Of a stretch of DNA of 64,000 bases, positions 1,380 to 64,000 are shown piece after piece. The DNA is from Squalus acanthias (lineage: Eukaryota): the NCBI GenBank assembly GCA_030390025.1, contig CM059431.1, forward strand, positions 142,044,001 through 142,108,000. The letters are read 5' to 3'. A program made the position numbers and the translations under genes. Numbering within the stretch: the stretch's first letter is position 1; each line of letters begins with the position of its first letter. Below the pieces are notes generated by a model, which worked only from the letters and a program-made list of their open reading frames with translations, was not told the origin of the DNA and did not search any database.

Positions 1380-4300
1380 TTGAGTGCAGTTTGTCACGGA
1401 GTGCAGCTTGACACAAAGTGAACAACTCGGGAGTTTGGACAGCGTGGGAGTTCGGTGAAGTGGGGGAAGGAGTTGCTGTTTTGCCTTGCTTTTCCTAACT
1501 TCTCCCGCAGAGCGCCAGCGGACCTGAGTGGGAGCAGACCGAGGCCCGAGAGAGGGGATAAAAGCAGCAGCAGACCTGCAACAAGAGAAAACTGCAGTGT
1601 GTCGTCACAGTAAAGGCAGGTAAGTGATTGGTAGTGACTGTGGGCTAACTTTTAAGTTAACACATAGCATACAACTAAATTTTAAAAACTAAACTTAATT
1701 TAATCAATTTAATAAACTAATGTAAGTAAATACCTTGATTACCACTAAACTAATTAATTAATAAATCAAAAAAATAATCGAAGAAGAGGAGATGTGTTGC
1801 TACTGCAATATGTGGGAGCTTGTGGACATTTTTGTCCAGGGCGACTACATCTGCGGTAAGTATCAGCGGTTCGAGGAACTTCGGCTCCGATTTCAGGAGC
1901 TGGAGTCCGACCTGCAGACATTGCGAGACATCAGGGAGGGAGAAATTTACCTGGAACTTTTGCACCAGGAGGCAGCCACAACCCTTAGACTAAATACTTT
2001 ATAATTGACACGTAGTCAGGGACTGGAGTGTGTGAGTGCGAGTGAGGCAAGTATGGGCATCCAGGAGGTAGTATTGCAGGAGCCTTATTCCTTGAATTTG
2101 TCCAATAGATTCGAGGTTCTAGCAACGCTTGCGGACGAGTGCGGGGACTGCGGAGAGGACGAGCAAACTGACCATGACACCATGGAACAGGAAGCCGGTC
2201 AAGTGGGGGGAGTAAAAAGGAAGTTGATTGTTTGTAGGCAGTAGTGTAGTTAGGGGGATAGACATTGTTCTCTGCAGCCAGGAGCGTGATTCACGAAGGC
2301 TATGTTGCCTACCTGGTGCCAGGTAAAAGACATCTCCTCCGAGCTGAAGAAGGACTTGTAGTGGAATGTGGAGGATCCAGTAGTCGTGGTCCACGTAGGT
2401 GCCAACGACATAGGTAGCACTAAGAAACAGTTTCTGCTGAGAGAGCTTGAGCAGCTAGGGACTAAATTAAAAAGCCGAAACACAAATTCTAATTTAACCC
2501 CACTATTTAAAAAAAGGTGGTAGAGAACAAATAGGGAAATATAGACCGGTAAGACTGACATTGGTAGTGGGCAAAATTCTAGTTTCCATTATAAAAGATG
2601 TAATAGCAGAGCACTTGGAAAACAGTGACAGGATCGGACAAAATCAACATGGCTTTACAAAAGGTAAATCATGCCTGACTAATCTACTGGAAATTTTGAG
2701 GATGCAAGTGGTAGAATAGATAAGGGAGAACCTGTGGATGTGGTGTATTTGGACTTTCAGAAGGCTTTCGACAAGGTCCCGCATAAGAGATTACCATGCA
2801 AAATTAAAGTACATGGTATTGGGGGTAAGGAACTGATTTGGATACAGAACTGGTTGGCAGACAGGAAGCAGAGTTAGAATAAACGGGTCTTTTTCCGAGT
2901 GGCAGGCAGTGACTAGTGGGGTACCGCAGCGATCGGAGCTAGGACCCCAGCTATTCACAATACAAATTAATGATCTAGATGAGGGAACGAGATGTAATAT
3001 CTCTACGTTTGCAGACGACACAAAGCTGGGTGGGCGTGTGTGCTGTGAGGAGGATGCAGAGAAACTCCAGTATGATTTGGACAGGTTGGGTGATTGGGCA
3101 GATGCATGGCAGATGCAGTATAATGTGGATAAATGCGAGGTGATCCACTTCGGTGGGAAAAACAGGAAGACAGATTATTATCTGAACGGCAATAGATTGT
3201 GAAAAGGGGAAGTGCAACGAGATCTGGGAGTCCTTGTGCACCAGTCGCTGAAGGCAAGCATGCAGGTGTAGCAGGCGGTTAAGAAGGCAACTGGAATGTT
3301 GGCCTTCATAGCAGGAGGATTCGAGTACAGGAGCAAGGATGTCTTGCTGCAGTTGTGCAAGGCCTTGGTGAGACCACACCTTGAGTATTGTGTGCAGATT
3401 TGGTCGCCTTATCTGAGGAAGGATGTTGTAGCCATGGAGGGAGTGCAGCGAAGATTTACCAGACTGATACTTGGGCTGGCAGGAATAAAGTATGAAGAGA
3501 GATTCGGTCGATTAGGCTTATATTCGCTAGAGTTTAGAAGAATGAGAGGGGATCTCATTGAAAATTATAAAAATCGTACAGGACTAGACAGACTAGATGC
3601 AGGAAGGATGTTCCCGTTGGAGGGGTTTCCAGAACCAGAGGTCACAGTCTAAGGATAAGGGGTAAGCCATTTAGGACTGAGATGATGTGGAATTTCTTCA
3701 CCCAGAGACTGGTGAACCTGTGGAATTCTCTACCAGAGAAGGCAGTTGAGGCCAATTCATTAAATATATTCAAGAAGGAGATTTATATATTTCTTAAGGC
3801 TAAAGGGATCAAGGGATTTGGGGAGAAAGCAGGGACAGGGTACTGAATTTGGATGATGAGCCATGATCTCATTAAATGGCGGAGCAGACTCGAGGGGCCG
3901 AATGGCCTACTCCTGCTCTTATCTTCTATGGCTCTATAAAAAGGTAATAATCTCTGAATTATTACCTGAGCCACGAGCAGTTTGGCATAGGAAATCAATA
4001 GGATCAGGGAGATGAATGCGTGGCTCAAAGATTGGTGTGGGAGAAGTGGGTTTCGATTCGAGGTGCACTGGCACCAGTACCAGTGAAAGAGAGAGCTAAT
4101 CCGTTGGGGAGGACTACACCTGAACCTTACTGGGACCAGAGTTCTAGCGAATCGAATAACTAGGAAGGTAGATGGGGCCTTAAACTAAATAAGGAGGGGA
4201 GGGGAGTCACGGTGGAGAGAAATCAAGAATGCTAACGAGATTATGCAAGGAAGCAGTGAAGGAAATCGATTGGGGTAAGGATAACCAGAATGTGTCAGGA

Positions 4301-7780: not shown

Positions 7781-8202
7781 GTGAGCCATTGTAAACTGCT
7801 TGTTGTTAACCGGTGTTAACTGTGTCCCTGTTCATGTCTCATGTTGGATATGGTAACTTTTTTACAGATGTCAGCATGACACAGTGAACCGCCTGTCTGC
7901 ACTTTCCCAGTTCCCCTTAATATCATAACATTTCCGATAATACTATGCTCTTTCAAGCTCCAACACAAGGATTTTAGCGGATTTCCGTCCTGTCTTGTCC
8001 CGCCGTGCAGAGTGAGCGCTGCAGCAGCTCATTAAAATGTGTGGGTGGGTTTCCCAGGTTCTGGCTCCAATACTAATCCTGTTCTCACACTGCTCCGTGT
8101 GGATAATCGCACTGAATGGATTAAAATGCTCTCCACATGTATCGCCATATATATTTCAATCAGACACTGGAACATTATTTCTCTCCTCTCTCTTTCTTAC
8201 AG

Positions 8203-9122
8203 CGAAATTGGTGACAATGGTGATTCTCTCCCGAGGAAACTGCGGCCTTTCCAAGTGCATCTCTGTCTACATGGTGGCCATGGCAACAGCAGATCTACTG
8301 GTCATGATCTTTAATGTAATGGTGTATTATATTTTAAGTTATCACTTTCCGCTTTCATTCCTGTCCCACACTCCGGTGTGTAAGTCCAATCTATACATGA
8401 ATGCTGTCACCTTCGATTTGTCTGTTTGGTTCACCGTCTCCTTCACATTTGACCGATTTATAGTTATCTGCAGCCAGAAGTATAAAGTAAAATATTGCAA
8501 CGAGAGAACTGCGGCCCTGGTTATAACAGCGTTCATATTCCTGATCTTTTTAAAGGGTATTGCCATTTTGTTTGCATATGAATCTCAGCAAATAATTAAC
8601 AAGGTGCAGTGGGGGTGTCGGGTAAGTGTAGCTTTTCTTTCCTCACCTCCAGGTGAAGCGTATCTCTGGTTTCACACCATATGGCTCGTTTGGCTTCCCT
8701 TTACGTTAATGGCCTTGTTTAATTGTTTTACCGTCAGACGTATTTTAGTGGCCAGCAGAGCCCGCAGGGGACTCCGGGGTCACAGCAGTGAGAATCAGAG
8801 CGATCCAGAAATGGAGAACCGAAGAAAATCCATCATTTTGCTCTTTGCTATATCGCGCAGTTTTATATTGCTGTGGCTGACTACTGCCGTGAGTTTTGTA
8901 ATTACCAGAATGTCAAACGTCAATTATTACCCAGGTGACCGCACAGACCCAGCCTTTTTCGCCACTGAAACCGGAGCAATGCTGAAGCATTTGAGCTCCT
9001 GTCCGAACACGTGTATTTATGCAGCGACCCAGAGGAAGTTCAGAGAAAAGCTGAAGAAGGTGCTGAAATCTCCCTGGACACTGATTCTAAGATTGGTTAA
9101 ACATGAAAGAAAGCCGAGCTAG
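8203..9122 (+). CDS. GPR139-like: GPR139-like orphan class A GPCR copy 1, coding exon 2 (spliced protein 329 aa, frame intact)
   Basis: Polypyrimidine tract and TTACAG acceptor at 8201-8202; motifs YMVAMATADL (TM2), SVWFTVSFTFDRF (DRY-like), RRKSIILL (TM6), NTCIY and FRE helix 8; TAG at 9120-9122. Confidence 0.9.
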
Positions 9123-16990: not shown

Positions 16991-18900
16991 GATTGTACGA
17001 TCTTCCGTGTCATTTTTCGCAGTCAGTCGCAGTGTAGGGTGTAAATTTAACAAATGCTGCAGTAGGAAAGCGGAGATACCGATTCTTGGGAGCAGATATG
17101 GAATCTTGAAATAACTTTGGGAGATGTGGGCTCAGAGTGAAGAGCTCAGACTGCAGAAAAAGACACAAATTCACGTGAACCCTCCGCGAGGCCTTTCTCA
17201 CCAATTAGTACTAACAGTTAAAGAAGGGTCATTTCCTTTAAGAGAAATTTGAATTAATCAGAAAACTATAACAAAGTTTTTTATTATTGCTAGTGGTTCA
17301 ATTGAAGCGCATCACGCACTATAGCCAAGCATTAGTAAACGTAATAAATTAATAAAAAATCATTTAAAATTGGAATTGAGATTAAACATTTGGAGTTTAT
17401 CAGCAATTATCTGTGCGAAATGCCTCCTGTAGTTTTACCCCAACCTTGCATCTATTGCTGGAGCCGGATCCTTACACTTTGCTCAATTTTCAGAATCATG
17501 AAGCTCAGCCCAGTACCAGTCTCCCATAATGCACCAGTTCAGTTTGAGTCTCTGTCACCGGTGGACTACAACACCCAGAATGCAACAGCGTAGTAGAGCA
17601 CCTCAGTCCGTTTAACTGTCAATCTTGCAATGCAGCATAACCCCGCTCCTACTCCTATTAATCCAATTCCTCAGTAAGACGTTAAAGGAGTGAATGAAGG
17701 ATTCATCTTCTTCCTCAGCATATATATTTCAAGATAATAAAATCCAGCTTTCCAACATTGGGATCTCCAGGACGTGGGGAAATACTTGGATTCACAACAT
17801 TGGAGATTCCGTGCATTTGATGCTGTGCAGGGCCCCTTCAACACAACCCGACAAAATTCCTCTGTGTGTACTTTAATATAGTGCATATAATTGGGTTGCC
17901 AGCTTTTGATTTGTTAAAGTAGGTACAGGCACCGCAGATTATCCCATTAACAACTGTGAGGATGATTAGGATAATTCGACAATTTAACAAAATAACGTTA
18001 AATAATAGAGTTCCTTATATTGCCTCCTAAACTGCATATGCAATTCCAGGAGTATTCCACTTAAAGGTGTACATTTTGAGAATCTTCCCTTCGTTCAAGA
18101 TAATTTTCTTGCTTTCTTCGTTGTATATCTAAATTGTTAAACTCCTCAGATTGAAGTTCATCAGTTTCCCTTTGCCTGTGTTATGCAGCACATGTATTTT
18201 GCAGTTTGTTTAGAGAAGGTTATATTTTTCATGTGATAAACTTTCGATAAAATAGTTATCAATTTCAGAAGCAGATAAAAACGTTTGTGCCGAATGAACC
18301 TCCTAGTAATTCAGTAAATAACATATAGAATACAGTTATCCAGTGAGCTGAAATGTTCCGCCCGGCTTCCCGTCTAACACTTAACTTCACATTTGAGTAA
18401 TTTGTGCATTCGCCTCATAACATTAAAGCTGACATTAGATCAGCTGGAGGTTTCCTCTTTTCTAAAGATAGAAAACAGGATTTTCTATAATTTCTTCAAA
18501 ACTGGAATTGTGAATCCCTGGAATTTCTGGGACTGAGCCCTGTGAACTATACAGAGCAGACATTTCCATTTTATGATTAGGTTGCCAGAATTGTCCACAC
18601 AGTCTAAATGAGGATAATCCCAACATTTCTTGTGACAACAATAATAGATTTAATTGGAACTCTATCCTTTGAAATTCGAGGGGCTTTCTCGAACAAAGGG
18701 GAAAGCGGGAACTGGCAGAGTGCGGGAACCCGTGGGACTGGAATCTGGCAGAATGTGGGATACAGGTGAGCGGGGCCATGATGAAAAGGAGAGCGGGAAG
18801 AGTCGAACAAATCAACTGACGGAGACAGCTCCAATTTGCATGAATAAAATGTCAATCTTATTTTGTTTTCAGCTTTTAAACACTGATCGGTGAATTGGAT

Positions 18901-19636
18901 GGGCCAAAAATTGATCCCGCTGCGCGAGAGTACGCACTGCGTACTCTGGCGTATTCTCTCTCCAATTGCCGGTTTTCTGCATGCACTGCGCATGCACTGA
19001 AAACCGGCACTTGGTCTTTGGAAAAGGGGGCGGTTCCTCGGTGCACCGCGTGCGCGCTACCGGCTGCGCGCACGCTGTGCACTTAGTGCTTTGGACGCGC
19101 AGGTAAGGACGGAAGATTTTAGAAACGAAAAAAGGAGTAAGACCCACTTTTAACAAGGTAAGTAGTGAATTAAGTATTATTTTGATTTTTTTTAACAGGT
19201 ATATCTTTTTTAGAGACTTTAAAGACAGGTAAGTTTATTTTTATAACTTTTTAAAAGATTTTAAATTTTTTCAAAAATGTAATTTTTTATTTAAAATGGT
19301 TAATTTATTTAACTATACTTATTTTATTAACGTGATTTTTAAAAAAAATTAATTGAGGTTTAGCTGTTATTTTGGGGGTGTGTAAGATTCATAGCTTTCA
19401 CAGCACGTAAGTGAAACTTATGAATGGAAGATGGTGTGCTGCCATTGGCTCTAACTGAGTCACGTGATGCCACAGCTCGCACAAATTCACTACGCCGGTG
19501 GGATACGCAAACACTGCCCAGCTGATGTCTGGAACATCAAGTTCGTGCGAGCTGGATCTGAAAAAGCCAACGCGGAGTGAGAGATCGCGGCTGCTCCTTA
19601 CCCCCGCGGGAACAGAGCGAGATCAATTTCTGGGCC
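18901..19636. mobile_element. MITE family A copy (about 740 bp, Harbinger-like), inverted relative to the other three
   Basis: TIRs GGGCCAAAAATTGATC / GATCAATTTCTGGGCC; reverse complement of the copies at 40620, 45368 and 59177. Confidence 0.85.
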
Positions 19637-24337: not shown

Positions 24338-25759
24338 TCATTTTCCAGCTAATCTCAGAATCAGTGTCCAGGGAGATTTCACCACATTCTTCAACTCTTC
24401 TCTGAATTTCCTCTGGGTCGCTGCATAAATACACGGGTTTAGACAGAGCTCAAATGCTTCAGCATTGCTCCGGTTTCAGTGGCGATATATCCAGGGTCTG
24501 TGCGGTCACCTCGGTAATAAGTCGTGTTTGTCAGTCTGGTAGTTACAAAACTCACGGCATTTGTCAGCCACAACCATATAAAACTGCCCGATACAGTGAA
24601 CAGTAAAATGATGGATTTCCTTCGGTTCTCCATCTGTGGATCGCTCTGATTTTCACTCATGTGGCCCCGGAGTCCCCTGCGGGCTCTACTTGCCACTAAA
24701 ATACGGCTGACTGTCAAACTATTAAATAAGACAATTAATGTAAAGGGAATTCAAACGACAGAGGCAGAATAAAACCAGACGATCGCTACACCAGCAGGTG
24801 AGGAAAAAAAAAGCACCACTATTCCGGCAGCCCCACTGCACCTTGTTAATTATTTGTTCAGGTTCAAATGCAAACAATACGGGGATGTCCTTTAAAAAAA
24901 ATTGGTTCGCTACGTTTGTTATAACCCCGGCCGCAGTTTTCTCGGTGCAATACTTTGTTCTAAACTTCTGGCAGCAGATAACTACAAATCGGTCAAATGT
25001 GAATGAAACGGTGAACCAAACAGACAAATCGATGGTGACAGCAGTCATGTATAGAATGACCTTACACACGGGAGTGTGGGACAGGAATCAAAGTGGAAAG
25101 TGATAACTGAATATATAATACATCATTACATTTAAGATCATGACCAGTAGATCCGCTGTTGCCATGGCCACCATGTAGACAGAGATACAGTTGGAATGTC
25201 CGCAGTTTCCTAAGGAGAGAATCACCATTGTCACCAAATTCGCTGTAAGAAACAGAGAGGAGAGAAATAAAGTTCCAGTGTCTGTTTTGAAATATATATG
25301 GAGAAAACTGTTGAGAGCATTTTGCTCCATTCAGTGCGATTATCTACACGGAGCAGTGTGAGAACAGGATTAGTATTGGAGCCATTACCTGGGAAACCCA
25401 CCCACACAGTATAATGAGCTGCTGCAGCGCTCACTCTGCACGGGGGGACAAGACGGTCCGGAAATCCGCTAAAATCCTTGTGTTGGAGCTCCAAAGAACA
25501 TCTTAAAATCAGTGATATTATCGAATTAAGGGAAACGTGGAAAGTGCGGACACCCGGTTCATTAGTTGCTTCCAGTTACTACCGACTGTGTAATGTTGAC
25601 ATCTAGAAATCACGTTACATTAGCCAACAGGCTCTATGAAGAGGAGACAGTTAACCCCGATTAACAACAAACAGGTTACAATGGCTCACCGGGGACACCG
25701 ACAGCTGCGAGGATCGGGTAGTAACTCTCTTTGATTAGCAAAATAGTTTGTTGTCCCAT
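24338..25759 (-). pseudogene. GPR139-like: GPR139-like GPCR copy 2 pseudogene (exon 1 25690-25759, exon 2 24338-25242)
   Basis: Exon 1 MGQQTILLIKESYYPILAAVGVP with GT donor; exon 2 ANLVTMVILS..; premature TGA at 25088-25090, frameshift in the A-run near 24805, second frameshift near 24440. Confidence 0.9.
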
Positions 25760-26164: not shown

Positions 26165-29100
26165 ATACCAGTGATGAGCACAGTCAGGCCGCACTAGATG
26201 TGGCCGTTTCCTCCGGTATAGTGGTAGCCTCCACTTACAGTAGAGGTAACCGTCTCCTCTGGTATAGTGGTACTCTACACTTACGCTAAAGAGGACCATG
26301 CTCCTGCTGTCGTTCTGGCAACGTACACTTACAGTAGAGTTCAACGTGGTCCAATGGTGATAGTGGTAGCACTGCACTGACACTAGTATTGACCGTGCTG
26401 TTCAAGTACTAATGCTAATCCTTCACTTACACTAGATGTGCATGTGCTCGACCTGCACAAGTGGTGCCCGTACACTTACACTAGGGATGACCGTTCTCCA
26501 CCGGTACTAGTAATATCCCTGCATTTGAACTAGTGCTGACCGTGCCCTTCCACTATTAGCGGTGCTTTGTAATTACACTAGAGGTGACCATTTTCCTCGT
26601 GTACTCATAGTATCCCTGAACTTACACAAGAGGTAACCTTGTCCCTCTGCTATTAGCGGTTCTCTGCAGTTGCACTAGTTATGACCGTGCTCCTCTTGTA
26701 CTAGTAGTACCACTAAACTTACACTGGAGTTGAGCGTATTCCTACAGGAAAAGTCGTATCGCTGCACTAACACTAGTGTTGACCGTGCACCTCCAGTATC
26801 AGTTGCACCCCTAACATTATAATAGAGCTGATTGTGCTCTTCCAATGATAGTACACTAGAACATAGGAACATAATAAATAGGACTGGGGTAGTCCATACC
26901 GCCCTTCGAGCCTGCCCTGCCATTCAATAAGATCCTCGCTGATATTCAACATCAACTCCACTTTGCCGCCCGATCCCCATATCCCTTGATTCCCTTAGAG
27001 TCCAAAATCTATCTATCTCCGTCTTGAATATACTCAACGGCTAAGCATTCACTGCCCTCTGGGGTAGACAATTGCAAAGATTCAAAATCCTCTGAGTGAA
27101 GACATTTCTCCTCATGTCGGACTTGTATGGCCGACTCCTTATCCTGAGGCTATCCCCATATGTCTAGACTCTCCAGCCAGGGGAAACAGGCTCTCAGAAT
27201 CTACCCGATCAATCCCCCTAAGAATATTGTATGTTTCAATGAGATCACCTCTCATTCTTCTAAACTATAGAGTGCATAGGACCAATCAACTCAATCTCTC
27301 CTCTTTGGACAACTGTCTCATCCCAGGTATCAATCTAGTGAACCTTTGTTGCACATCCTCTAATGCCAGTATATCCTTTCTTAGAAAAGGAGATCACAAC
27401 TGTACACAGTGCTCAAGGTGTGGTCTCCCACCAAAGGCCTATACAAATACAGCAAGGTTTCCTTAATCTTGTACTCCAACCCCCTTGGAATAAAGACCAA
27501 CATGCCATTTGCCTTCTTAATTGCTTGTTCTGCCTGCATGCTAACTCTCTCTGTTTCCTGTATGAGGACATTTTAATCTCTCTGAACACCAACATTTATT
27601 TGTTTCTCACCATTTCAAAATATTAATATTTTCTGTTGTTCTTACCAAAGTGAATAACCTTCCATTTCCCCACATTTTACACAATCAGCCATGTTCTTGC
27701 CCACTCACTATACCTGGCTATATCCCTTTGCAGACTATGTGTGTACTCCTCACAGCTTACTTTCCAACCTAGTTCTGTATCGCCAGAAACTTGGATACAT
27801 TACATCCATCTAAGCGATTAATATAGATTGCAAATAGCTGAGGCCCCAGCAATGATCCTTAGTAGCCTGCCTAGCTGAAAATGTCCCGTTTACTCCTGTT
27901 GTCTGTTATCTTTCCTTTATCAATCCTCTGCTCAGTCTAATATATTATCCCAACCCCATGATCCCGTATCTAGTGTAACAACTTTTCTAATGGCACCTTA
28001 TCGAATGCCTTTTGAAAATCGAAATATACTTCATCCACTGGTTCCCCTTTATCAATCCTGTTAGTTATATCCTCAAATAACTAATGCATTTGCACATCAC
28101 GATTTCCCTTTCATAAAAGCATGTTGACTCTGCCTCATCATGTTATAATTTGCTAAGTGCCTTGTTACCACATCCTTAATAATGGATTCCAGCATTTTCC
28201 CGACGATTTATGTCAGGCTAACTGAGCAGTCGTTCCCTGTTTTTTCTTTCCATCCTTTATTGAATAGCGGTGTTACATTTCCTACCTCTTGTTACATCCT
28301 AGTTTAAGTGTGGTGTTACCCCTACACTTATACTGGATGTGACTGTGCTCCTCCACTAAGAGTGGTAACTTATACAAGATGTCAGCGTGTTCCTCCTGCA
28401 ATACTTGTAACTCTACATTTAAATAGATGTGACCGTGCTCCACTGGCACTAGTGGTAATCCTACACTTAACCTAGATGTATCCTTCGTTATTAGTGTACC
28501 CTACACTTGCACCAGTGTTCACCGTGCTCCTCAGGTACTCGTGGAACACTACACTTACACTACAGTTGACCGTGCTCCTCAGGTACTAGTGGAACCCTAC
28601 ACTTACACTACAGTTGACCGTGCTCCTCAGGTACTAGTGGAACCCTACACTTGCACTACCGTTGACCGTGCTCCTCAGGTACTAGTGGAACCGTACACTT
28701 ACACTAAATTTGACCGTGCTCCTCAAGTACTAGTGGAACCCTACACTTACACTACAGTTGACCGTGCTCCTCAAGTACTAGTGGAACCCTACACTTACAC
28801 TACAGTTGACCGTGCTCCTCAGGTACTAGTGGAACCCTACACTTACACTACAGTTGACCGTGCTCCTCAGGTACTATTGGATACCTACACGTACACTACA
28901 GTTGACCGTGCTCCTCAGGTACTAGTGGAACCCTACACTTACACTACAGTTGTCCGTACCCCTCAGGTACTAGTGGAACCCTACACTTACACTACAGTTG
29001 ACCGTGCTCCTCGGGTACTCGTGGAACCCTAGACTTACACTACAGTTCACCGTGCTCCTCAGGTACTCGTGGAACCCTACACTTACACTACAGTTGACCG

Positions 29101-37800: not shown

Positions 37801-39429
37801 CCTGATTTTCTGACATGTTAGTAAAAAAAATCGCGCAAAAATTAAAGAGCAATTGTCCTCACGGGATGGAAGAAACGAAGCTTTTATTTGCTCACATATT
37901 CCGGTTGATTTTAATTTTGTGGTTTAACATAATTCTAACATTTCCTTCTCTCTTTATTCCAGTTAGCCTGGTGGCGATTTCCATCCTGTGCCGAGGAAAT
38001 TGCCGTCTCTCCAAATGTGTCACTCGCTACCTGGTGGCGATGGCAGTAGCGGATTTAATAGTAGTGATTATTGAAGTCCTGATGTACCAGATTACTAGAA
38101 TTTATTGGAAAATCAAATTCCTGAAACAGGCTCCATTTTGTCTTGTCCATTATGTCCTGTGTCAGGTTGCTTTGGATTGTTCTGTTTGGCTCACCGTCGC
38201 TTTCACTTTCGATCGCTTTGTAGCCATTTGCTGCCCGAAGTTTAAGTTGAAATATTGCACCCCGAAAATTGCGGCGTTAGTTATTTTCCCAATATGTCTG
38301 GGGTTCTGTTTAAAGAACATCCCCTTTTATTTCCTGTATATGGAATCAAATTATTATATTCGCGGGAGTTTGAGGTGTTCGGGAAACAATCCCTACCCAT
38401 GTCGGAAACGTTTGAGTGGTTTTACTGGTTAGACCGTCTGTTGAAGCCGCTGCTTCCATCTGTCTCATTTTGCTCCCTAATGCTCTGACAGTCAGCCAGA
38501 TTATTGCGTCCAGTGGAGTCCGCAGGGGGCTCAGGGCCCGGAGTAATGGCGAGAAGCAGAGAGATCCAGAGATGGAAAATCGGAGACAATCCATCATTCT
38601 GCTCTTCACCCTGTCGGGCAGTTTTATTCTGTGATGGATGACAACTACTCTGGTCTTCATTCTCAGCCGATGTCTTTACACAGACCTGGAAACGTCTATT
38701 CGTCTTATTCAGGCAAAAAATGTCGGGACAGTAATTCAGCTTTTCAGCTGCTGCGCAAACACCTTCATTTATGGAGTGACCCAGAAGAAATTCAGAGAGC
38801 AGTTGAGGAGCGCGGTGGTGTATCCTGTTACTCTCGTTGCTAAATTAGTTTGATAATGTGTACCGCACAGATCAATGCGTCAGTTAATGTTCTAGTTTTG
38901 TAGCAGTGCCGACATGACCAGAAACCTCTCTGAATAAGACTACAATCCACCAACTGCGGTCTAACCTGGTGAACTTAACCCTTCTCGAGGTGAGAGTGCC
39001 CCTCCTCCCTACTCCTCCATTGTTTCCATTGACTGCTTCAGGGCACTTGCCTGTTTTATAATTCTATTTACATTTAGGCCTGATTTACAAGTGATCCTTG
39101 TTTGGTTTCTGTAGAATATTATCATATCAACACATTGCCCTTATGTGGAGGTATAATAAGATTTCGTCATACATCCATACCATTGATACAAGTTCGAGGA
39201 CTAGGAATCACTGCAACATCTTATTAATGCATTTCATTAAATCATGTCAATGTTATAATAAAACACTAATCCTTAAATGCAGGGTATATGAGATAGAGGT
39301 ACTTATAAAAACATTATAACTCCCGTAGAAAGGGCTCCTTCAGGAGATCGCAAGAGAGTCGCCTTGACTACTAACGCTGGCCTCAGCAAGAATGGGCTCA
39401 AAGTCCCCAAAGAGCTCCAGTGTGTTGTC

Positions 39430-55815: not shown

Positions 55816-56211
55816 TTCACTGCCTGTTCTGCAGGAGTTGCTGCACTAGAAGTGAATCAAGGTCAGGTCATGACGGTTATTGCCTGGGGAGCTGCATTCA
55901 CCAGGACTGTAGGAATAGGGCCAGCACCAGTACTGGGAGATTGCAATTCCGACTCGTAAACAATATTTTAATTGTGTATTTTTTAAAACTGTCCAACAAT
56001 AATTTCACTTATTTCTCTTAATCTGACGTATCAGGTAAGAAAAACAACTTGCTGAGTCGATTTGTTAAGTGACTGTAAATAATGCTAATTATGTTTTAAC
56101 CTGATTGACTCCCTGGAGGATTGATGTGTGGATAAATATAGGTTTTCCTCCATTGCCGCAGCCTTGCGCCAGTCAGAGTTCTTTACCTCCGACAGATTTC
56201 ATCTATTCTAA
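55816..56211 (+). promoter_or_regulatory. Displaced upstream/promoter region of GPCR copy 4
   Basis: Collinear with 7300-7705 and with 25765-26160(rc); separated from its ATG by a CR1. Confidence 0.7.
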
Positions 56212-59200
56212 CAGAGCAATAGTTATTGGGGACTCAATAGTCAGAGGGACAGATAGGAGGTTCTGTGGCAGCAAAAGAGACTCACGGATGGTATGTTGCC
56301 TCCCGGGTGCCAGGGTCCGTGACGTCTCGGACCGTGTTTTCAGAATCCTCAAAGGGGAAGGGGAACAATCACAAGTCGTGGTACACATCGGTACCAACGA
56401 CATAGGTAGGAGAAGGGACGGGGATTTAAAACAGGAATTTAGGGAGCTAGGTTGGAAGCTGAGAGCCAGTACAAACCATGTTGTAATTTCTGGTTTGTTG
56501 CCGGTGCCACGTGCTAGCGAGTTGAGGAACAGGGAGAGAGTGCAGATAAACACGTGGCTGCAGGGATGGTGTAGGGGGGAGGGTTTCAGTTATGTGGATA
56601 ATTGGAGCACATTCTGGGGAAGGTGGGACCTGTACAAACAGGACGGTTTGCACCTGAACCAGAGGGGCACCAATATCCTGGGAGGGAAATTTGCTACGGC
56701 TCTTCGGGGGGGTTTAAACTAATTTGTCAGGGGGATGGGAAAAAGGGCTGTAGTCCACGAGCCAGTGGTGAGTGTAGGGAGGTACTGAGGAGGGTATCAA
56801 GGTCGCAGGAATGTACCGGCAGACAGGAAGATGGCTTGAAGTGTGTCTACTTCAACGCAAGGAGCATCCGGAATAAGGTAGGAGAACTTGGAGCGTGGAT
56901 TGGTACTTGGGACTACGATGTGGTGGCCATTACGGAGACATGGTTAGAACAGGGACAGGAATGGTTGTTGGAAGTTCCGGGGTATAGATGTTTCAGTAAG
57001 AGTAGGGAAGTTGGTAAGAAAGGTGGAGGAGTAGCATTGTTAATCAAGGATAGTTTAACAGCGGCAGAAAGGCAGTTCGAGGGGGATCTGCCGTCTGAGG
57101 TAATATGGGCTGAAGTTAGAAATAGGAAAGGAGCGGTCACGTTGTTAGGAGTTTTCTACAGGCCCCCAAATAGTAATAAAGATGTGGAGGAAGAAATTGC
57201 AAAGCAGATTATGAATAGGTGTGGAGGTCACAGAGTAGTTGTCATGGGTGACTTCAACTTTCCAAATATTGATTGGAACCTTTATAGGTCAAACAGTTCG
57301 GATGGGATAGTTTTTGCACAGTGTGTGCAGGAGGGTTTCCTGACACAATATGTGGATAGGCCGACAAGAGGTGGGGCCACGTTGGATTTGGTACTGGGTA
57401 ATGAACCGGGCCAAGTGTTAGATTTGTATGTGGGAGAGCACTTTGGAGATAGTGACCACAATTCGGTAACTTTCACTATTGCAATGGAGAGGGATAGGGC
57501 CATACGGCAGGGCAGGGTTTATAATTGGGGGAGGGGTAATTATGATGCGATTAGGCAAGAATTAGGGAGTATAAGATGGGAACAGAAACTATCAGGGAAA
57601 GGCACAAACGAAAAGTGGAGCTTTTTCATGGAGCAATTACTGCGTGTCCTTGATAGGTATGTCCCTGTCAGGCAGGGAGGAAATGGCCGAGTGAGAGAAC
57701 CATGGTTCACAAAAGAGGTTGAATGTCTAGTCAAGAGGAAAAAGGAAGCGTATGTAACGATGAGAAAACAAGGTTCAGTTGGGTCGATTGAGGGGTACAA
57801 GGTAGCAAGGAATGAGCTAAAAAAAGAGCTTAGGAGAGCTAGGAGGGGGCATGAGAAGTCCTTGGCGGGTCGGATCAAGAAAAACCCCAAGGCTTTATAC
57901 TCTTATGTGAGAAATAAAAGAATGACCAGGGTGAGGGTAGGGCCGGTCAAGGACAGTAGTGGGAACTTGTGCATGGCGTCAGAAGAGATAGGAGAGGTGA
58001 TGAATGAATACTTTTCGTCAGTGTTCACCGAGGAGAGGGGCCATGTTCTTGAGGATGAGAGTGTGATAAAGGTGGATAGGCTGGAGGTGGCAGATGTTCT
58101 GAGGGAAGATGTTTTAGCAATTTTGAAGAACCTGAGGGTCGATAAGTCCCCTGGGCCAGATGGGATATATCCTAGGATTCTTTGGGAGGCAAGGGAGGGG
58201 ATTGCAGAGCCTCTGGCTTTGATCTTTGGGTCCTCACTGTCCATGGGGATGGTGCCAGAGGACTGGAGAGTGGCGAATGTTGTTCCTCTCTTCAAGAGAG
58301 GAAATAGGAATGACCCTGGTAATTATAGGCCGGTTAGTCTTACTTCGGTGCTTGGTAAGATAATGGAAAAGGTCCTGAGGGATAGGATTTATGACCATTT
58401 GGAAAGGGGCAACTTAATCAGGGATAGTCAACACGGATTCGTGAAGGGTAAGTCTTGCCTAACAAATTTGATTGAATTCTTTGAGGAGGTAACTAAGTGT
58501 GTAGATGAAGGTAGAGCAGTTGATGTCGTATACATGGATTTTAGTAAGGCGTTTGATAAGATTTCCCATGGTCGTCTCATGAAGAAAGTAAGGAGTTGTG
58601 GGATAGAGGGAAATTTGGCCGATTGGATAAGTAACTGGCTATCTCATAGAAGGCAGAGGGTGGTGGTGGATGGAACATTTTCGGACTGGAGACCAGTTAC
58701 CAGCGGTGTGCCACAGGGGTCGGTGCTGGGTCCTCTGCTGTTTGTGATTTTTATCAATGACTTGGAGGAGGGGACTGAAGGGTGGATCAGTAAATTTGCT
58801 GATGACACCAAGATTGGTGGAGTAGTGGAAGAGGTGGAGGGCAGTTGTAGGCTGCAAAGAGACATTGATAGGATGCAGAGCTGGGCCGAAAAATGGCAAA
58901 TGGAATTTAACCCTGATAAGTGCGAGGTGATTCATTTTGGTAGGGCAAATTTGAATAAGGATTACAGGGTCAACGGCAGGGTTCTGAGGAACGTGGAGGA
59001 GCAGAGGGATCTGGGGGTTCATATCCACAGATCTCTGAAGGTTGCCACTCAAGTGGATAGAGCAGTAAAGAAGGCCTATGGTGTGTTGGCGTTTATTAAC
59101 AGAGGGTTTGAGTTTAAGAACCGTGAGGTTATGCTGCAACTGTACAGGACCTTGGTGAGACCACATTTGGAATATTGGCCCAGAAATTGATCTCGCTCTG

Positions 59201-60450
59201 TTCCCGCGGGGGTAAGCCTTCCCCGCGATGTCTCACCTCGCTTATGCTTTTTCTGATCCAGCTCGCACGAAATTGATGTTCCAGACATCAGCTGTGCTGG
59301 GCTTGCGTATCCCAGCGGCGTAGTTAATTCGTGCGAGCTGTGGGATCACGTGACTCAGTTAGAGCCAATGGCAGCACACCATCTTCCATTCATAAGTCTC
59401 ACAGCATGGCTGTGAGACTTATGAATCTTACACCCCCCCAAAATAACAGCTAAACCTCAATTAAATTTAAAAAAAAACCCATCACATTAATAAAATAAGT
59501 ATAGTTAATTAAATTAACCATTTTAAATAAAAAATTAAATTTTTGAAAAAATTTAAAATCTTTTAAAAAGTTATAAAAATAAACTTACCTGTCTTTAAAG
59601 TCTATAAAAAAGATATACCTGTAAAAAAAATTCAAAAAAATACTTAATTCACTACTTACCTTCTTAAAAGCGGGTCTTACTCCTCCTTTTTACATTTCCA
59701 AAATCTTCCCTACTTACCTGCGCGTCCAAAGCATGAAGTGCACAGCGTGCGCGCAGCCTGTAGCGCGCACGCGATGCAGCCAGGCCCCGCCCCCTTTTCG
59801 GAAGAGCAATTGCCGGTTTTCAGCGCATGCGCAGGGCATGCAGAAAACCGGCAATTGGAGTGGGAATACGCGAGAGTATGCAGTGCGTACTCTCGCGTCC
59901 CGGGATCAATTTTCGGCCCATTGTGTGCAGTTCTGGTCACCTCACTTTCGGAAGGACGTGGAAGCATTGGAAAGAGTGCAAAGGAGATTTACCAGGATGC
60001 TGCCTGGTTTGGGGGGGAGGTCTTATGAGGAAAGATTGAGGGAGTTGGGGCTTTTCTCTTTAGAGCGGAGGAGGATGAGAGGCGACTTAATAGAGGTTTA
60101 TAAGATGATGAGGGGGATAGATAGAGTGGATGTTCAGAGACTATTTCCTCGGGTAGAGGCAGCTGTTACAAGGGGGCATAACTATAATGTGCATGGGGGG
60201 AGATATAGAAGGGATGTCCGAGGTAGATTCTTTACTCAGAGAGTGGTTGGGGTGTGGAATGGACTGCCTGCTGTGATAGTGGAGTCGGACACTTTAGGAA
60301 CTTTCAAGCGGTTATTGGATAAGCACATGGAGCACACCAGAGTGATAGGGAGTGGGATAGCTTGATCTTGGTCTCGGACAATGCTCGGCACAACATCGAG
60401 GGCCGAAGGGCCTGTACTGTGCTGTACTGTTCTATGTATCTATGTATCTA
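56212..60450 (+). mobile_element. Young CR1 LINE: 5'-truncated ORF1 (SGNH esterase) plus complete ORF2 (EN-RT) split only by a MITE
   Basis: IGDSIVR..CLPGA..HIGTND..DGLHL esterase; 862-codon EN-RT frame to 59190 continuing at 59922-60365; (TATCTATG)n tail. Confidence 0.95.
59177..59919. mobile_element. MITE family A copy with exact 3-bp TSD (ATT)
   Basis: TIRs GGCCCAGAAATTGATC / GATCAATTTTCGGCCC; ATT at 59174-59176 and 59920-59922; removal restores GAATATTGTGTGCAG (EYCVQ). Confidence 0.92.
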
Positions 60451-60884: not shown

Positions 60885-61740
60885 GGGCCGGATTTTCTGA
60901 CCCCCAGAGGTGCGTACGAGGTGTGTAGCGGCCGCGCAATTGCCGGGTTCAGGCATGCGAAGCGCATGCGCTAAAGCCCGGCACTTGCGATCTGTCAAGA
61001 ATTCTCTGGACAGATCAGCCGCCTGCCCGGGAAAAGTGCCTCCGCGGGCAGGGAGTTGCGCTTTCTGCACAACTTCCGCCCGCTGAAAACCTTTCAAATA
61101 TTACACCTGATAAAAGCAGGCGAGAGATCTGCTTTTACCAGCATAAGTGTTTAAAAAAATAAAAGGATTTTTTTTTCACTCATATTTAATTTAAAAATAC
61201 TTTCAAAAACGGTAAGTTTATTTTTAGCCACGTTTAAAATATTTAATTTAAAGTAATTTTAACTAATTTTGAATACGTGATTAAAAATATTTATTTAATG
61301 TTTAACTGTGTTTTTAAATGCGATCCCCATTCATACTTTGGACAGATCTGTGGTTAGAGATCTGTCAAAATTGTGAAAGAAAGACTTGCATTTATATAGC
61401 GCATTTAACGACCACCGGACCTCTCAAAGTGCTTTGCAGCCAGTACTTTTTGGAGTGAAGTCACTGTTGTAATGTGGGAAACACAGCAGCCAATTTCCGC
61501 ACAGCAAGGTCCAACAAACAGCAATGTAATAATGAACAGATAATCTGTTTGTTATGTTGATTGAGGGATAAATATTGGCCAGGACACCGGGGGTAACTCC
61601 CCTGGTCTTCTTCGAAATATTGCCATGTGATCGTTGACGTCCACCTGAGAGTGCAGACGGAGCTCCCTCAGTACAGCACTGGAGTGTCAGCCTAGATTTT
61701 TGTGTGCACGCAGGAAGCCTGCGATCGGAAATTCAGGGCC
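60885..61740. mobile_element. MITE family B copy in the intron of copy 4, with nested SINE
   Basis: TIRs GGGCCGGATTTTCTGA / TCGGAAATTCAGGGCC; reverse-complement similarity to 22886-23640; absent from the introns of copies 1 and 2. Confidence 0.8.
61376..61700 (-). mobile_element. Deu-domain SINE nested in MITE B
   Basis: TTGCATTTATATAGCGC tail; TTGAGGGATAAATATTGGCCAGGACACCGGGG and CTCCCTCAGTACAGCACT core. Confidence 0.8.
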
Positions 61741-64000
61741 AATAAATCTCCATTGATATTTCAAGCAGACACTTCAAAATTATTTCTCTCCTTTCTCTTT
61801 CTTACAGCGAACTTGATGGCAATTATTATTCTCTCCCGAGGAAACTGCGGCCTTTCCAAGTGTATCTCTGTCTACATGGTGTCCATGGCAACAGCAGATC
61901 GACTGGTCATGATCATCAATGCAGTAGTGTCTCACACGCTGGTGTGTAAATTCATTTTATACATGACTGGTGTCACCCTCGACTTGTCAGTTTGGTTCAC
62001 CGTCTCATTTACATTTGACCGATTTGTAGTTCTCTGCTGCCAGAAGTTTAAGACAAAATATTGCACCAAGAGAACTGCGGCCGCGGCTATAACAACGTTT
62101 TCGGTCCTGACCTTATTTAAAGACATCCCCGTATTGTTTGGATTTGAACATCAGCAAATAATTAACAAGGTGCAGTGGGGCTGCCGTCCAAGTGTGGCTT
62201 TTTCTTCCTCACCTCCAGGTGTTGCCTACCTCTGGTTTCACAGCGCCTGGGTTGTTTGGCTTCCTTTCAGTTTAATTGTCTTGTTTAATTCTTTAACAGT
62301 CCGTCGTATATTAGTGGCCAGCAGAGCCCGCAGGGAACTCCGGGGTCACAGGACTGAGAATCAGTGTGATCCGGAGATGCAGAACCGAAGGAAATCTATC
62401 ATTTGACTCTTCACTATATCGGGCAGTTTTATATTGTTGTGGCTGACAAATGCCGTGAGTTTGTTAACTACCAGACTGGGAAACACCATTATTACCGAGG
62501 CGACCGCACAGACCCTGGATATATCGCCACAGAAACCGGAGCCATGCTGAAGTTTTTGAATGGCTTTCAAAACCTGTATATTTATGCAGCGACCCAGAGG
62601 AAATTCAGAGAAGAGCTGAAGACTGTGGTGAAATATCCCTGGACAATCACTCTGAGATTGGTTAGAAAATGAGATTTAAAGTAATCAAGTCAAACAAAAG
62701 CTCCCTCGTAACTAAAGCTCAATTTCAACTCCTTTTCCACCGTAGAACGTCCTTCTTTCTGGAAATGTGAAAAATGGGAGAGTTCATGTGTGAACATTTA
62801 TTCGATTTTTAGCATGCGTTTGATGTCTGCTTTACTTTAGCTTTTCTCGCTTCTTTCGCTGAGTAAACATAACCTATTCCGGCAAATTTAGCACATTTCA
62901 ATTTCAGGGATCAAACAGAACAATGATGAGGTGCAGCAGTGGAGTCGGACATGTGTGTAACAGAGGAATCCACCTCACACTGCAGATACTTGGATCGGGC
63001 GCGCCACTTTAAAATCATCAATAAAGTTTCATTGGGTGCCGAAAACTATCAAAGGTCCTGCGATCGCCGATATTGGTTAATTTCCTGGAAGTTTGGTGTG
63101 AATATTGCAGGCGCGAGTCTCTCTATCGGACTCCATTCCTCATTGACAAACGGAGCCGGCTCTTGTCACGTGATCAGTGTTCCAATGGAGGAAACAGTCG
63201 GAACCCGGCTCAGAGATGTGACCTTTCACCTCTTTTGTCCCAGATACTGATTTAAAATCTCGATTGCGCGCTGACTGGTGTCTCTCACTCATAACTGAGG
63301 TGGAGTCTGCTCTTGTTTTGTGCTGTCGATAGAAGTATCATCAGTAATATTATTGAAATTCTGTCTCAATCAGTCTCCCAAACAAAATAGTAAAGGAATG
63401 TAAACATGAACGATTATTTATAAAATTATTAACTATTACTTTTCATGCAATTTATCTGTAAAAAAAAAGCTGCTAGAAATTCAGCTGAAATAAAACTGAT
63501 ATTAATTATTCTGTGTTTGGCTGAACATATGCGGACGGTCAGAAAGAATCTTTGGTAATTACCGTCTTAATATGCGGTTACAATTTGTCCCAAATAATCA
63601 TTAAAATTCCAGCAACTTTGAATCACTTGCAAATTGTTCATCCCTGATCTCACCAATCTGCGAGGAAACGACAAGGAATGGAAGAATTTCTCAATTGAAA
63701 AACCTGAAGGATGTGGATGGAGAGTGAGCGATAGGGATCCAAAAATTAATTCATCGAAAGTGTGTTTTCAGGAGGATAAATCCATGCAAACAAAGAGAGA
63801 AATTTGTGTTTATATATATGGGCGTAGACCACAAGAATAAACAAGTGATGATGAATCTTTACAAATTGCTGGTGAGGCTACCATTAGAACAGCAGGTACA
63901 GCTTCACCCCCTCGTTGTGGAAAGACCATTAAATCCACTGAGTGCGGGCAGTGTAGATACACCAGGATGGTGCCATGGATCAGAACTATACTGATGATGA

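Follow-up and report, generated by a model that had tools for sequence, protein, structure and literature searches.

In coronaviruses, retroviruses and long terminal repeat (LTR) retrotransposons, a structural open reading frame (ORF) is fused to a polymerase ORF lying in the −1 frame, and in infectious bronchitis virus (IBV) the slip takes place on the heptamer U_UUA_AAC (Atkins et al. (2016), PMC5009743, cited throughout from the available part of its text). Together with G_GGA_AAC and A_AAA_AAC, this heptamer ranks among the most shifty for mammalian ribosomes (PMC5009743). [quoted passage not shown] Frameshifts have been proposed for retroelements without LTRs as well, in other clades: HeT-A gag (PMC5009743, whose available text also mentions TART and L1) and Penelope-like elements, for some of which the frameshift is drawn with a pseudoknot (available part of PMC8557442). 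Mammalian L1 is a long interspersed nuclear element (LINE) with two ORFs, and its ORF2 does not necessarily depend on its AUG (PMC5009743); a spacer lies between its two frames, and separate initiation is presumed for ORF2p. Here we describe a CR1 LINE, likewise with two ORFs, in a 64,000-nt stretch of Squalus acanthias DNA ("the window"). Unlike in L1, its reading frames overlap on the heptamer U_UUA_AAC. Comparison with related junctions leads us to propose, with a probability of roughly 0.78, that in CR1 LINEs of the esterase type ORF2 is expressed through programmed −1 frameshifting, yielding an ORF1p–ORF2p fusion.

The junction lies at 56.7 kb in the window. ORF1 (frame 56105–56722) ends in GGT TTA AAC TAA, with T TTA AAC phased as X XXY YYZ, and the ORF2 frame (56602–59190), which opens with TTG at 56602, is in the −1 frame relative to ORF1 and reads across the site as GGFKLICQ. 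The first in-frame ATG of ORF2, at 57211, is about 125 codons past motif I of the endonuclease (56836), so that a protein begun there would be without about 125 residues of that domain. The heptamer and its phase, the −1-frame reading GGFKLICQ, the TTG start and the late first ATG had been noted in the initial annotation, as had the G-rich tract that follows the heptamer, and each point was borne out. The features of this copy, and of a second junction in the window, are:

56210–56722, plus strand: 3′ part of CR1 ORF1, an SGNH/GDSL esterase (Pfam PF13472, E = 1.2e-13) with a Leu-Asn-stop end
56713–56719, plus strand: slippery heptamer U_UUA_AAC, the last two sense codons of ORF1
56720–56722, plus strand: ORF1 stop codon TAA, directly 3′ of the heptamer; C plus TA reads as Leu in the −1 frame
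56720–56835, plus strand: linker in the −1 frame, joining the slip site and the endonuclease, with no stop and no ATG; motif I is codon 41 from the heptamer
56730–56734, plus strand: G-box GGGGG, candidate stimulator of frameshifting, set off from the heptamer by a 10-nt spacer (first G at +11)
56737–56747, plus strand: two more G3 runs (56737–56739 and 56745–56747), with weaker conservation
56836–57459, plus strand: ORF2 apurinic-type endonuclease (Pfam PF03372, E = 5e-22), with motif I, LKCVYFNARS, upstream of the first ATG
58312–59019, plus strand: ORF2 reverse transcriptase (Pfam PF00078, E = 1.1e-36)
59176–59920, no strand assigned: later insertion breaking ORF2, with 20-nt terminal inverted repeats (inverted repeat I4); ORF2 continues beyond it (frame 59625–60365)
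59921–60450, plus strand: remainder of ORF2 (stop at 60365), 3′ untranslated region and short TTCTATGT-like terminal repeats
4177–4204, plus strand: junction of a second, decayed CR1 family, with C_TTA_AAC, the stop TAA, GGGG at +11 (4196–4199) and a second GGGG (4201–4204)

The 56.7 kb copy itself is dead. It is 5′-truncated, with ORF1 homology only from about position 56210, and its ORF2 is interrupted by the 745-nt insertion; the alignment of its ORF1 to protein P0001 spans residues 136–306 only, and the N-terminal ≈135 residues of its relatives are missing. The proposal of frameshifting therefore concerns the family rather than this copy. A 2,714-nt contig from another run covers 56400–57100 with two other letters, and the whole-depth differences of that run, at 56758 and 56856, make no ATG. 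Between 56706 and 56757 there was no difference of at least 4% in either contig set, which is modest support for the junction being typical of its family, since contigs drop rare variants; two runs of raw reads, one of DNA and one of RNA, gave six reads and none, respectively. Seventeen runs contain at least half of the sampled words, and evidence was taken from two of them. Directly 5′ of the heptamer is a run of seven Gs (56706–56712), where P0024 has two extra Gly residues, indicating that the run is unstable in length; it is not conserved in other families.

A metagenome scan with the ORF1 alignment gave 42 loci, of which 27 were without a junction (26 end before it, and L043 is an unrelated match). 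Fifteen metagenomic loci reach the end of ORF1, 14 of them identified by a hidden Markov model (HMM) that omits the last residues and one with an indel (L016) by reading; four further HMM rows stop just short of the end. L037 reaches the end of the esterase, but has a different esterase type without the heptamer and was set aside. The junction set thus consists of 16 CR1-type junctions, two from the window and 14 metagenomic. Scans of viral contigs and prokaryotic genomes yielded no CR1 junction; the weak 34-residue matches L001–L004 were left out. Many contigs of one metagenome (L005, L009, L012, L017–L019 and L025) break off close to the end of ORF1, at a distance of at most about 100 nt, as is expected where repeat copy number jumps.

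TTA AAC was present in 16/16 junctions, but these had been chosen via TTAAAC near the HMM-predicted end of ORF1, and positions 2–7 of the position table are therefore fixed by construction. Independent of this selection, TTAAAC is found at the ORF1 end in 14 of the 15 metagenomic loci that reach it. The base preceding TTA AAC is T in 14/16 junctions (G in L006 and C at 4179), compared to 438 of 1,748 third positions elsewhere, and a stop codon directly follows the heptamer in 14/16 (TAG in 10, TAA in three, TGA in one). In 11 of the same ORFs, TTA accounts for 18/173 Leu codons and AAC for 20/48 Asn codons, corresponding to a chance of ≈0.043 per junction. The loci are not independent, since 12 are bird-like, a label resting on what we take to be an avian ORF2 motif, and have 51–82% identity upstream; counting four deep lineages only, the codon-pair chance is still ≈4e-6. 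For L006, L007 and both sites in the window, identity to all others is 44–55% by global alignment, which is approximately the floor of such an alignment. The heptamer has thus been kept at synonymous positions between families whose flanks are barely alike. The loose-end consensus of another subfamily likewise runs into TTTAAAC and a stop. For the second CR1 end in the window, GCC TTA AAC TAA (4177–4188), the similarity described in the initial annotation held for TTA AAC, the stop codon and the G-runs, whereas the heptamer, C_TTA_AAC, is not canonical.

Of the 13 junctions that extend as far as the endonuclease downstream of the heptamer, 11 have this domain in the −1 frame. Nine of the 13 are free of stops from the heptamer to motif I, with linkers of 33, 33, 33, 33, 41, 44, 47, 57 and 84 codons; L008 and L029 also keep it in the −1 frame, but are locally damaged. 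The linkers of distant families are only 35–57% alike by global alignment. In 11/16 junctions there is a −1-frame stop 2–6 codons 5′ of the heptamer, which confines entry into ORF2 to the heptamer or the linker in those cases. The two sequence-level observations that the initial annotation had named as fatal to its claim, a −1-frame stop after the heptamer or a conserved ATG before the endonuclease, were not made; the window's family, L007 and L024 (three of the nine intact junctions) have no ATG there at all. Among the 120 listed ORF2 homologues of L006, none extends back to the slip site, and the scattered starts assigned by gene callers are uninformative on phase. Three proteins, P0018 and P0025 (gene models of Hypanus sabinus) and P0071, read on past the esterase into the Phe-Lys-Leu segment of the −1 frame, and the first two further into the endonuclease. 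They probably represent copies carrying an indel, or artefacts of gene modelling, and confirm the order of the parts in rays but not frameshifting.

We considered whether these patterns could reflect a constraint on protein alone, acting on a C-terminal Leu-Asn in ORF1p and on a Phe-Lys-Leu-x-x-x-Gly segment before ORF2. Leu-Asn-stop is indeed nearly invariant in the first set of close homologues, from sharks, rays, a chimaera, Xenopus and turtles, and Gly is found at position 7 of the segment in P0018, P0025 and P0071. However, synonymous positions are fixed, and the codon counts largely refute this explanation. Moreover, a selected −1 peptide must be translated, which in 11/16 junctions needs entry within 2–6 codons of the heptamer. 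Such a constraint is thus a highly improbable explanation.

The C-termini of the ORF1 proteins count in favour of frameshifting over a wider range. A set of 150 representatives at 50% identity includes 118 that reach the last helix; 110 stop no more than 20 residues past the esterase, and Leu-Asn is the final dipeptide in 65 of those 110. In the 65, tails of 4–18 residues separate the last helix from the end, suggesting that the dipeptide tracks the stop codon rather than the fold, and the residue before Leu-Asn has a codon able to end in T in 64. Lys, Glu, Gln, Met and Trp, which have no such codon, precede Leu-Asn in 1/102 proteins, compared to 35/102 one position earlier (Fisher p = 4e-11, for all esterases fetched, including related rows). 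In one distant lineage, 18 proteins end in Gly-Asn; 14 of these have Gln or Lys before the dipeptide (13 Gln), none has Phe, Tyr, Cys, His, Asn, Asp or Ile, and none is preceded by a residue that has no G-ending codon. Four proteins of one cluster end in Ser-Lys-Asn. Judged from the protein sequences, the Gly-Asn ends would fit G_GGA_AAC and the Ser-Lys-Asn ends A_AAA_AAC.

Other ORF1 proteins have different ends. P0108, P0151, P0186, P0328–P0331 and P0336, nested within the Gly-Asn branch, end in Phe-Phe followed by at most one residue (one is longer); this is possibly a U-rich slip site, but does not fit the simple heptamer rule. Esterases with a His-Pro motif, probably of the fish L2 type, have no Leu-Asn end (P0138, P0154, P0182, P0339 and L037), and the signal may therefore be limited to the CR1-type esterase ORF1. 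Three CR1-like proteins are filed under Pseudomonas aeruginosa (P0005), Candidatus Thiodiazotropha (P0293) and Enterospora canceri (P0297), and are probably host DNA in those assemblies.

The G-rich tract proved to contain an element at a fixed position, which extends the observation of the initial annotation and is new here. Omitting L009 and L025, whose sequences end too early, G is present at +11, +12, +13 and +14 from the heptamer in 14, 14, 13 and 14 of 14 junctions, and GGGG occupies exactly +11 to +14 in 13. By comparison, among 1,261 other linker positions, only 19 are the first base of a GGGG. At least two runs of three or more Gs occur within +8 to +47 in 13/14 junctions. In the −1 frame, +11 and +14 fall on third codon positions, so that a requirement for Gly does not explain these two Gs. 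Its resemblance to the PRRSV signal (PMC4937337), a conserved unstructured motif at a fixed spacing of 9–11 nt, is geometric only: the CR1 motif is G-rich rather than C-rich, the heptamer is different, and there is no known trans-activator.

A fixed distance to a G-box might also be expected of a signal in RNA processing or transcription. TTTAAA is a minor variant of the poly(A) hexamer, and G-rich downstream elements can enhance polyadenylation; alternatively, the heptamer could serve in splicing or as part of a TATA-like internal promoter. None of these would account for the phasing by codons, the stop that adjoins the heptamer, the invariant C or the continuity of the −1 frame. A splice signal is further contradicted by the heptamer being followed by TAG, TAA or TGA, which leaves no constant AG acceptor, and the contigs include a single unexplained joint, from 56589 to 56711, at a depth of 22 versus >100,000. 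We consider an RNA-level signal of this kind very unlikely.

The most serious rival is termination followed by reinitiation as in L1, in which ribosomes restart at a nearby AUG or non-AUG codon and the heptamer and G-box serve as a termination or ribosome-tethering signal. Coupling of this sort, through a UAAUG overlap, is known from SART1. The available text of Atkins et al. (PMC5009743) considers AUG-independent initiation likely for ORF2 of mammalian LINEs, and the absence of a canonical stimulator at the CR1 junctions is also consistent with reinitiation. An AUG is found 2 nt after the stop codon in four bird-like families (L010, L013, L015 and L016), L029 has a UAAUG stop–start overlap, and six of the nine intact junctions have an in-frame AUG before motif I, at scattered positions. 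On the other hand, the window's family, L007 and L024 are without such an AUG, and other bird-like copies have GTG, TCG, TGG or TCC at the codon concerned. Nor does reinitiation require an in-frame linker from the heptamer, a T before TTA or the apparent switch in heptamer type. We therefore consider it unlikely, and a rival chiefly for those bird-like families whose stop has an AUG next to it; birds could use the two routes together.

The AUGs just described and the selection of junctions via TTAAAC count against −1 frameshifting, as do several other observations. A single TTTAAACTAA in 64 kb is within chance (it was present in 26/100 shuffles) and, taken alone, is no argument for a functional site; the case depends on position, phase and conservation rather than motif count. 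The 4.18 kb copy has stops in all frames and its endonuclease motif in frame 0, and in L036, too, the endonuclease is in another frame; both copies are decayed. Among the 110 ORF1 proteins, 45 do not end in Leu-Asn, and ≈30 have nothing slip-like. The Gly-Asn and Lys-Asn rows, known from proteins alone, share one branch in a quick tree; they may belong to other retroelements, and should be counted as one suggestive event. In L025, whose contig ends at +13, there is a T at +11, with G only from +12.

Downstream structure is a further point against the proposal. The initial annotation had suggested folding the 80 nt downstream for a stem-loop, pseudoknot or G-quadruplex; at the window's site we found no stem-loop (z-scores of −0.5 to +1.4), using tools that do not model pseudoknots directly. 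With the same tools, there was no conserved stem-loop across families (z from −2.2 to +1.7 in 28 folds of 14 junctions), and no hairpin or pseudoknot was found 5–9 nt downstream, the hallmark of the coronavirus and retrovirus type. CR1 thus differs from those canonical sites in structure as well as in its host, a non-LTR element. At 11 loci, a duplex scan of the G-box against 500 nt of upstream sequence and as much as 3 kb of downstream sequence revealed no pairing partner at a shared position and no conserved C-rich partner. G4Hunter-type scores range from 0.76 to 2.40, and L007 has a single G run; given these uneven scores, a quadruplex is not general. No natural case of frameshift stimulation by a G-quadruplex is known according to the available text of Atkins et al. 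(PMC5009743).

Assignment of the element to CR1 is based on the type of its ORF1, the order of its domains and the form of its 3′ tail, which we take to be that of CR1. ORF1 carries the SGNH esterase (PF13472), for which the named homologues are from sharks, rays, a chimaera, Xenopus and turtles, the nearest to the window's ORF1 piece being those of sharks and rays; ORF2 carries an apurinic-type endonuclease followed by a reverse transcriptase (PF03372 and PF00078). This resembles CR1 subgroup 7 with ORF1 of type IVB, which has a zinc finger/leucine zipper region in addition to the esterase (available text of PMC4120745). The zinc finger/leucine zipper region is absent from the truncated copy, but relatives at 80–89% identity have Cys pairs and a Leu-rich stretch. 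The esterase groups are described as exclusively vertebrate in the available text of PMC4120745, whereas L006 and L007 look invertebrate here; among named ORF2 sequences, that of Apostichopus japonicus is nearest to L006, at 53%.

CR1 fills the window, in which retrotransposon fragments and single-exon G protein-coupled receptor (GPCR) genes are abundant. The 745-nt element that interrupts ORF2 (59176–59920) looks like a non-autonomous DNA transposon: it has terminal inverted repeats of 20 nt, contains several hairpins and is flanked by what appears to be a target duplication of 3 nt. A similar sequence is found on the minus strand near 18869–19234. Related single-exon GPCR frames of the rhodopsin type, several of them broken, are clustered at 8016–9122, which matches Pfam 7tm_1, and at 24722–25087, 37806–38432 and 61696–62406. 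At 28433–29032, a 39-nt unit is repeated in tandem, and the array is open as a peptide that repeats every 13 residues.

Among the interspersed repeats of the chicken genome, CR1 is the most abundant (available part of PMC11835228), and the literature searched did not yield a description of how CR1 produces its reverse transcriptase. That search returned no report of a CR1 frameshift; Haas 1997, Kajikawa 1997, Kapitonov and Jurka 2003 and supplements were outside its reach, and there is a real, if minor, chance that those papers or the Repbase notes already mention overlap or frameshifting. The word "frameshift" is absent from the available text of PMC4120745, PMC3905857, PMC8665684 and PMC4316615, as is "overlap" from that of PMC4120745. 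CR1 does not appear in the available text of PMC5009743, nor the whole word "retrotransposon" in PMC7618472. Mentions of frameshifts in the available parts of PMC11835228, PMC4255032 and PMC6609765 concern other things.

The idea of an ORF1–ORF2 fusion made by frameshifting, put forward in the initial annotation, is therefore supported at the comparative level, from which we infer slippage itself. By this mechanism, ribosomes would translate ORF1 up to the Leu-Asn encoded on U_UUA_AAC, and the majority would terminate at the next codon, releasing ORF1p. A minority would slip back by one base and continue through the variable linker into the endonuclease and reverse transcriptase. The product would be a Gag-Pol-like fusion of ORF1p and ORF2p with ≈1,270 residues, estimated from a 306-residue ORF1p and the coordinates of ORF2. 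The pause would probably be caused by the G-box 11 nt downstream, acting as a binding site for a putative protein or as a small G-quadruplex, perhaps aided by the adjacent stop codon. More tentatively, at somewhat less than even odds, esterase-type CR1 elements, from invertebrate-like families to those of sharks and birds, may share a −1 frameshift that is stimulated by the unstructured G-box, read by a host G-tract-binding protein, by ORF1p or as a small G-quadruplex, and that has been kept since before the origin of jawed vertebrates.

If frameshifting does occur, the CR1 enzyme would be made as a fusion to ORF1p, with a built-in ratio of ORF1p to ORF2p and with tethering in cis as in retroviruses, unlike in L1. 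ORF2 annotations that begin at the first ATG could then miss motif I of the endonuclease. If the G-box is indeed the stimulator, it would represent a counterpart in cellular genomes of the protein-stimulated frameshifting of arteriviruses, or a natural case of frameshifting stimulated by a G-quadruplex.
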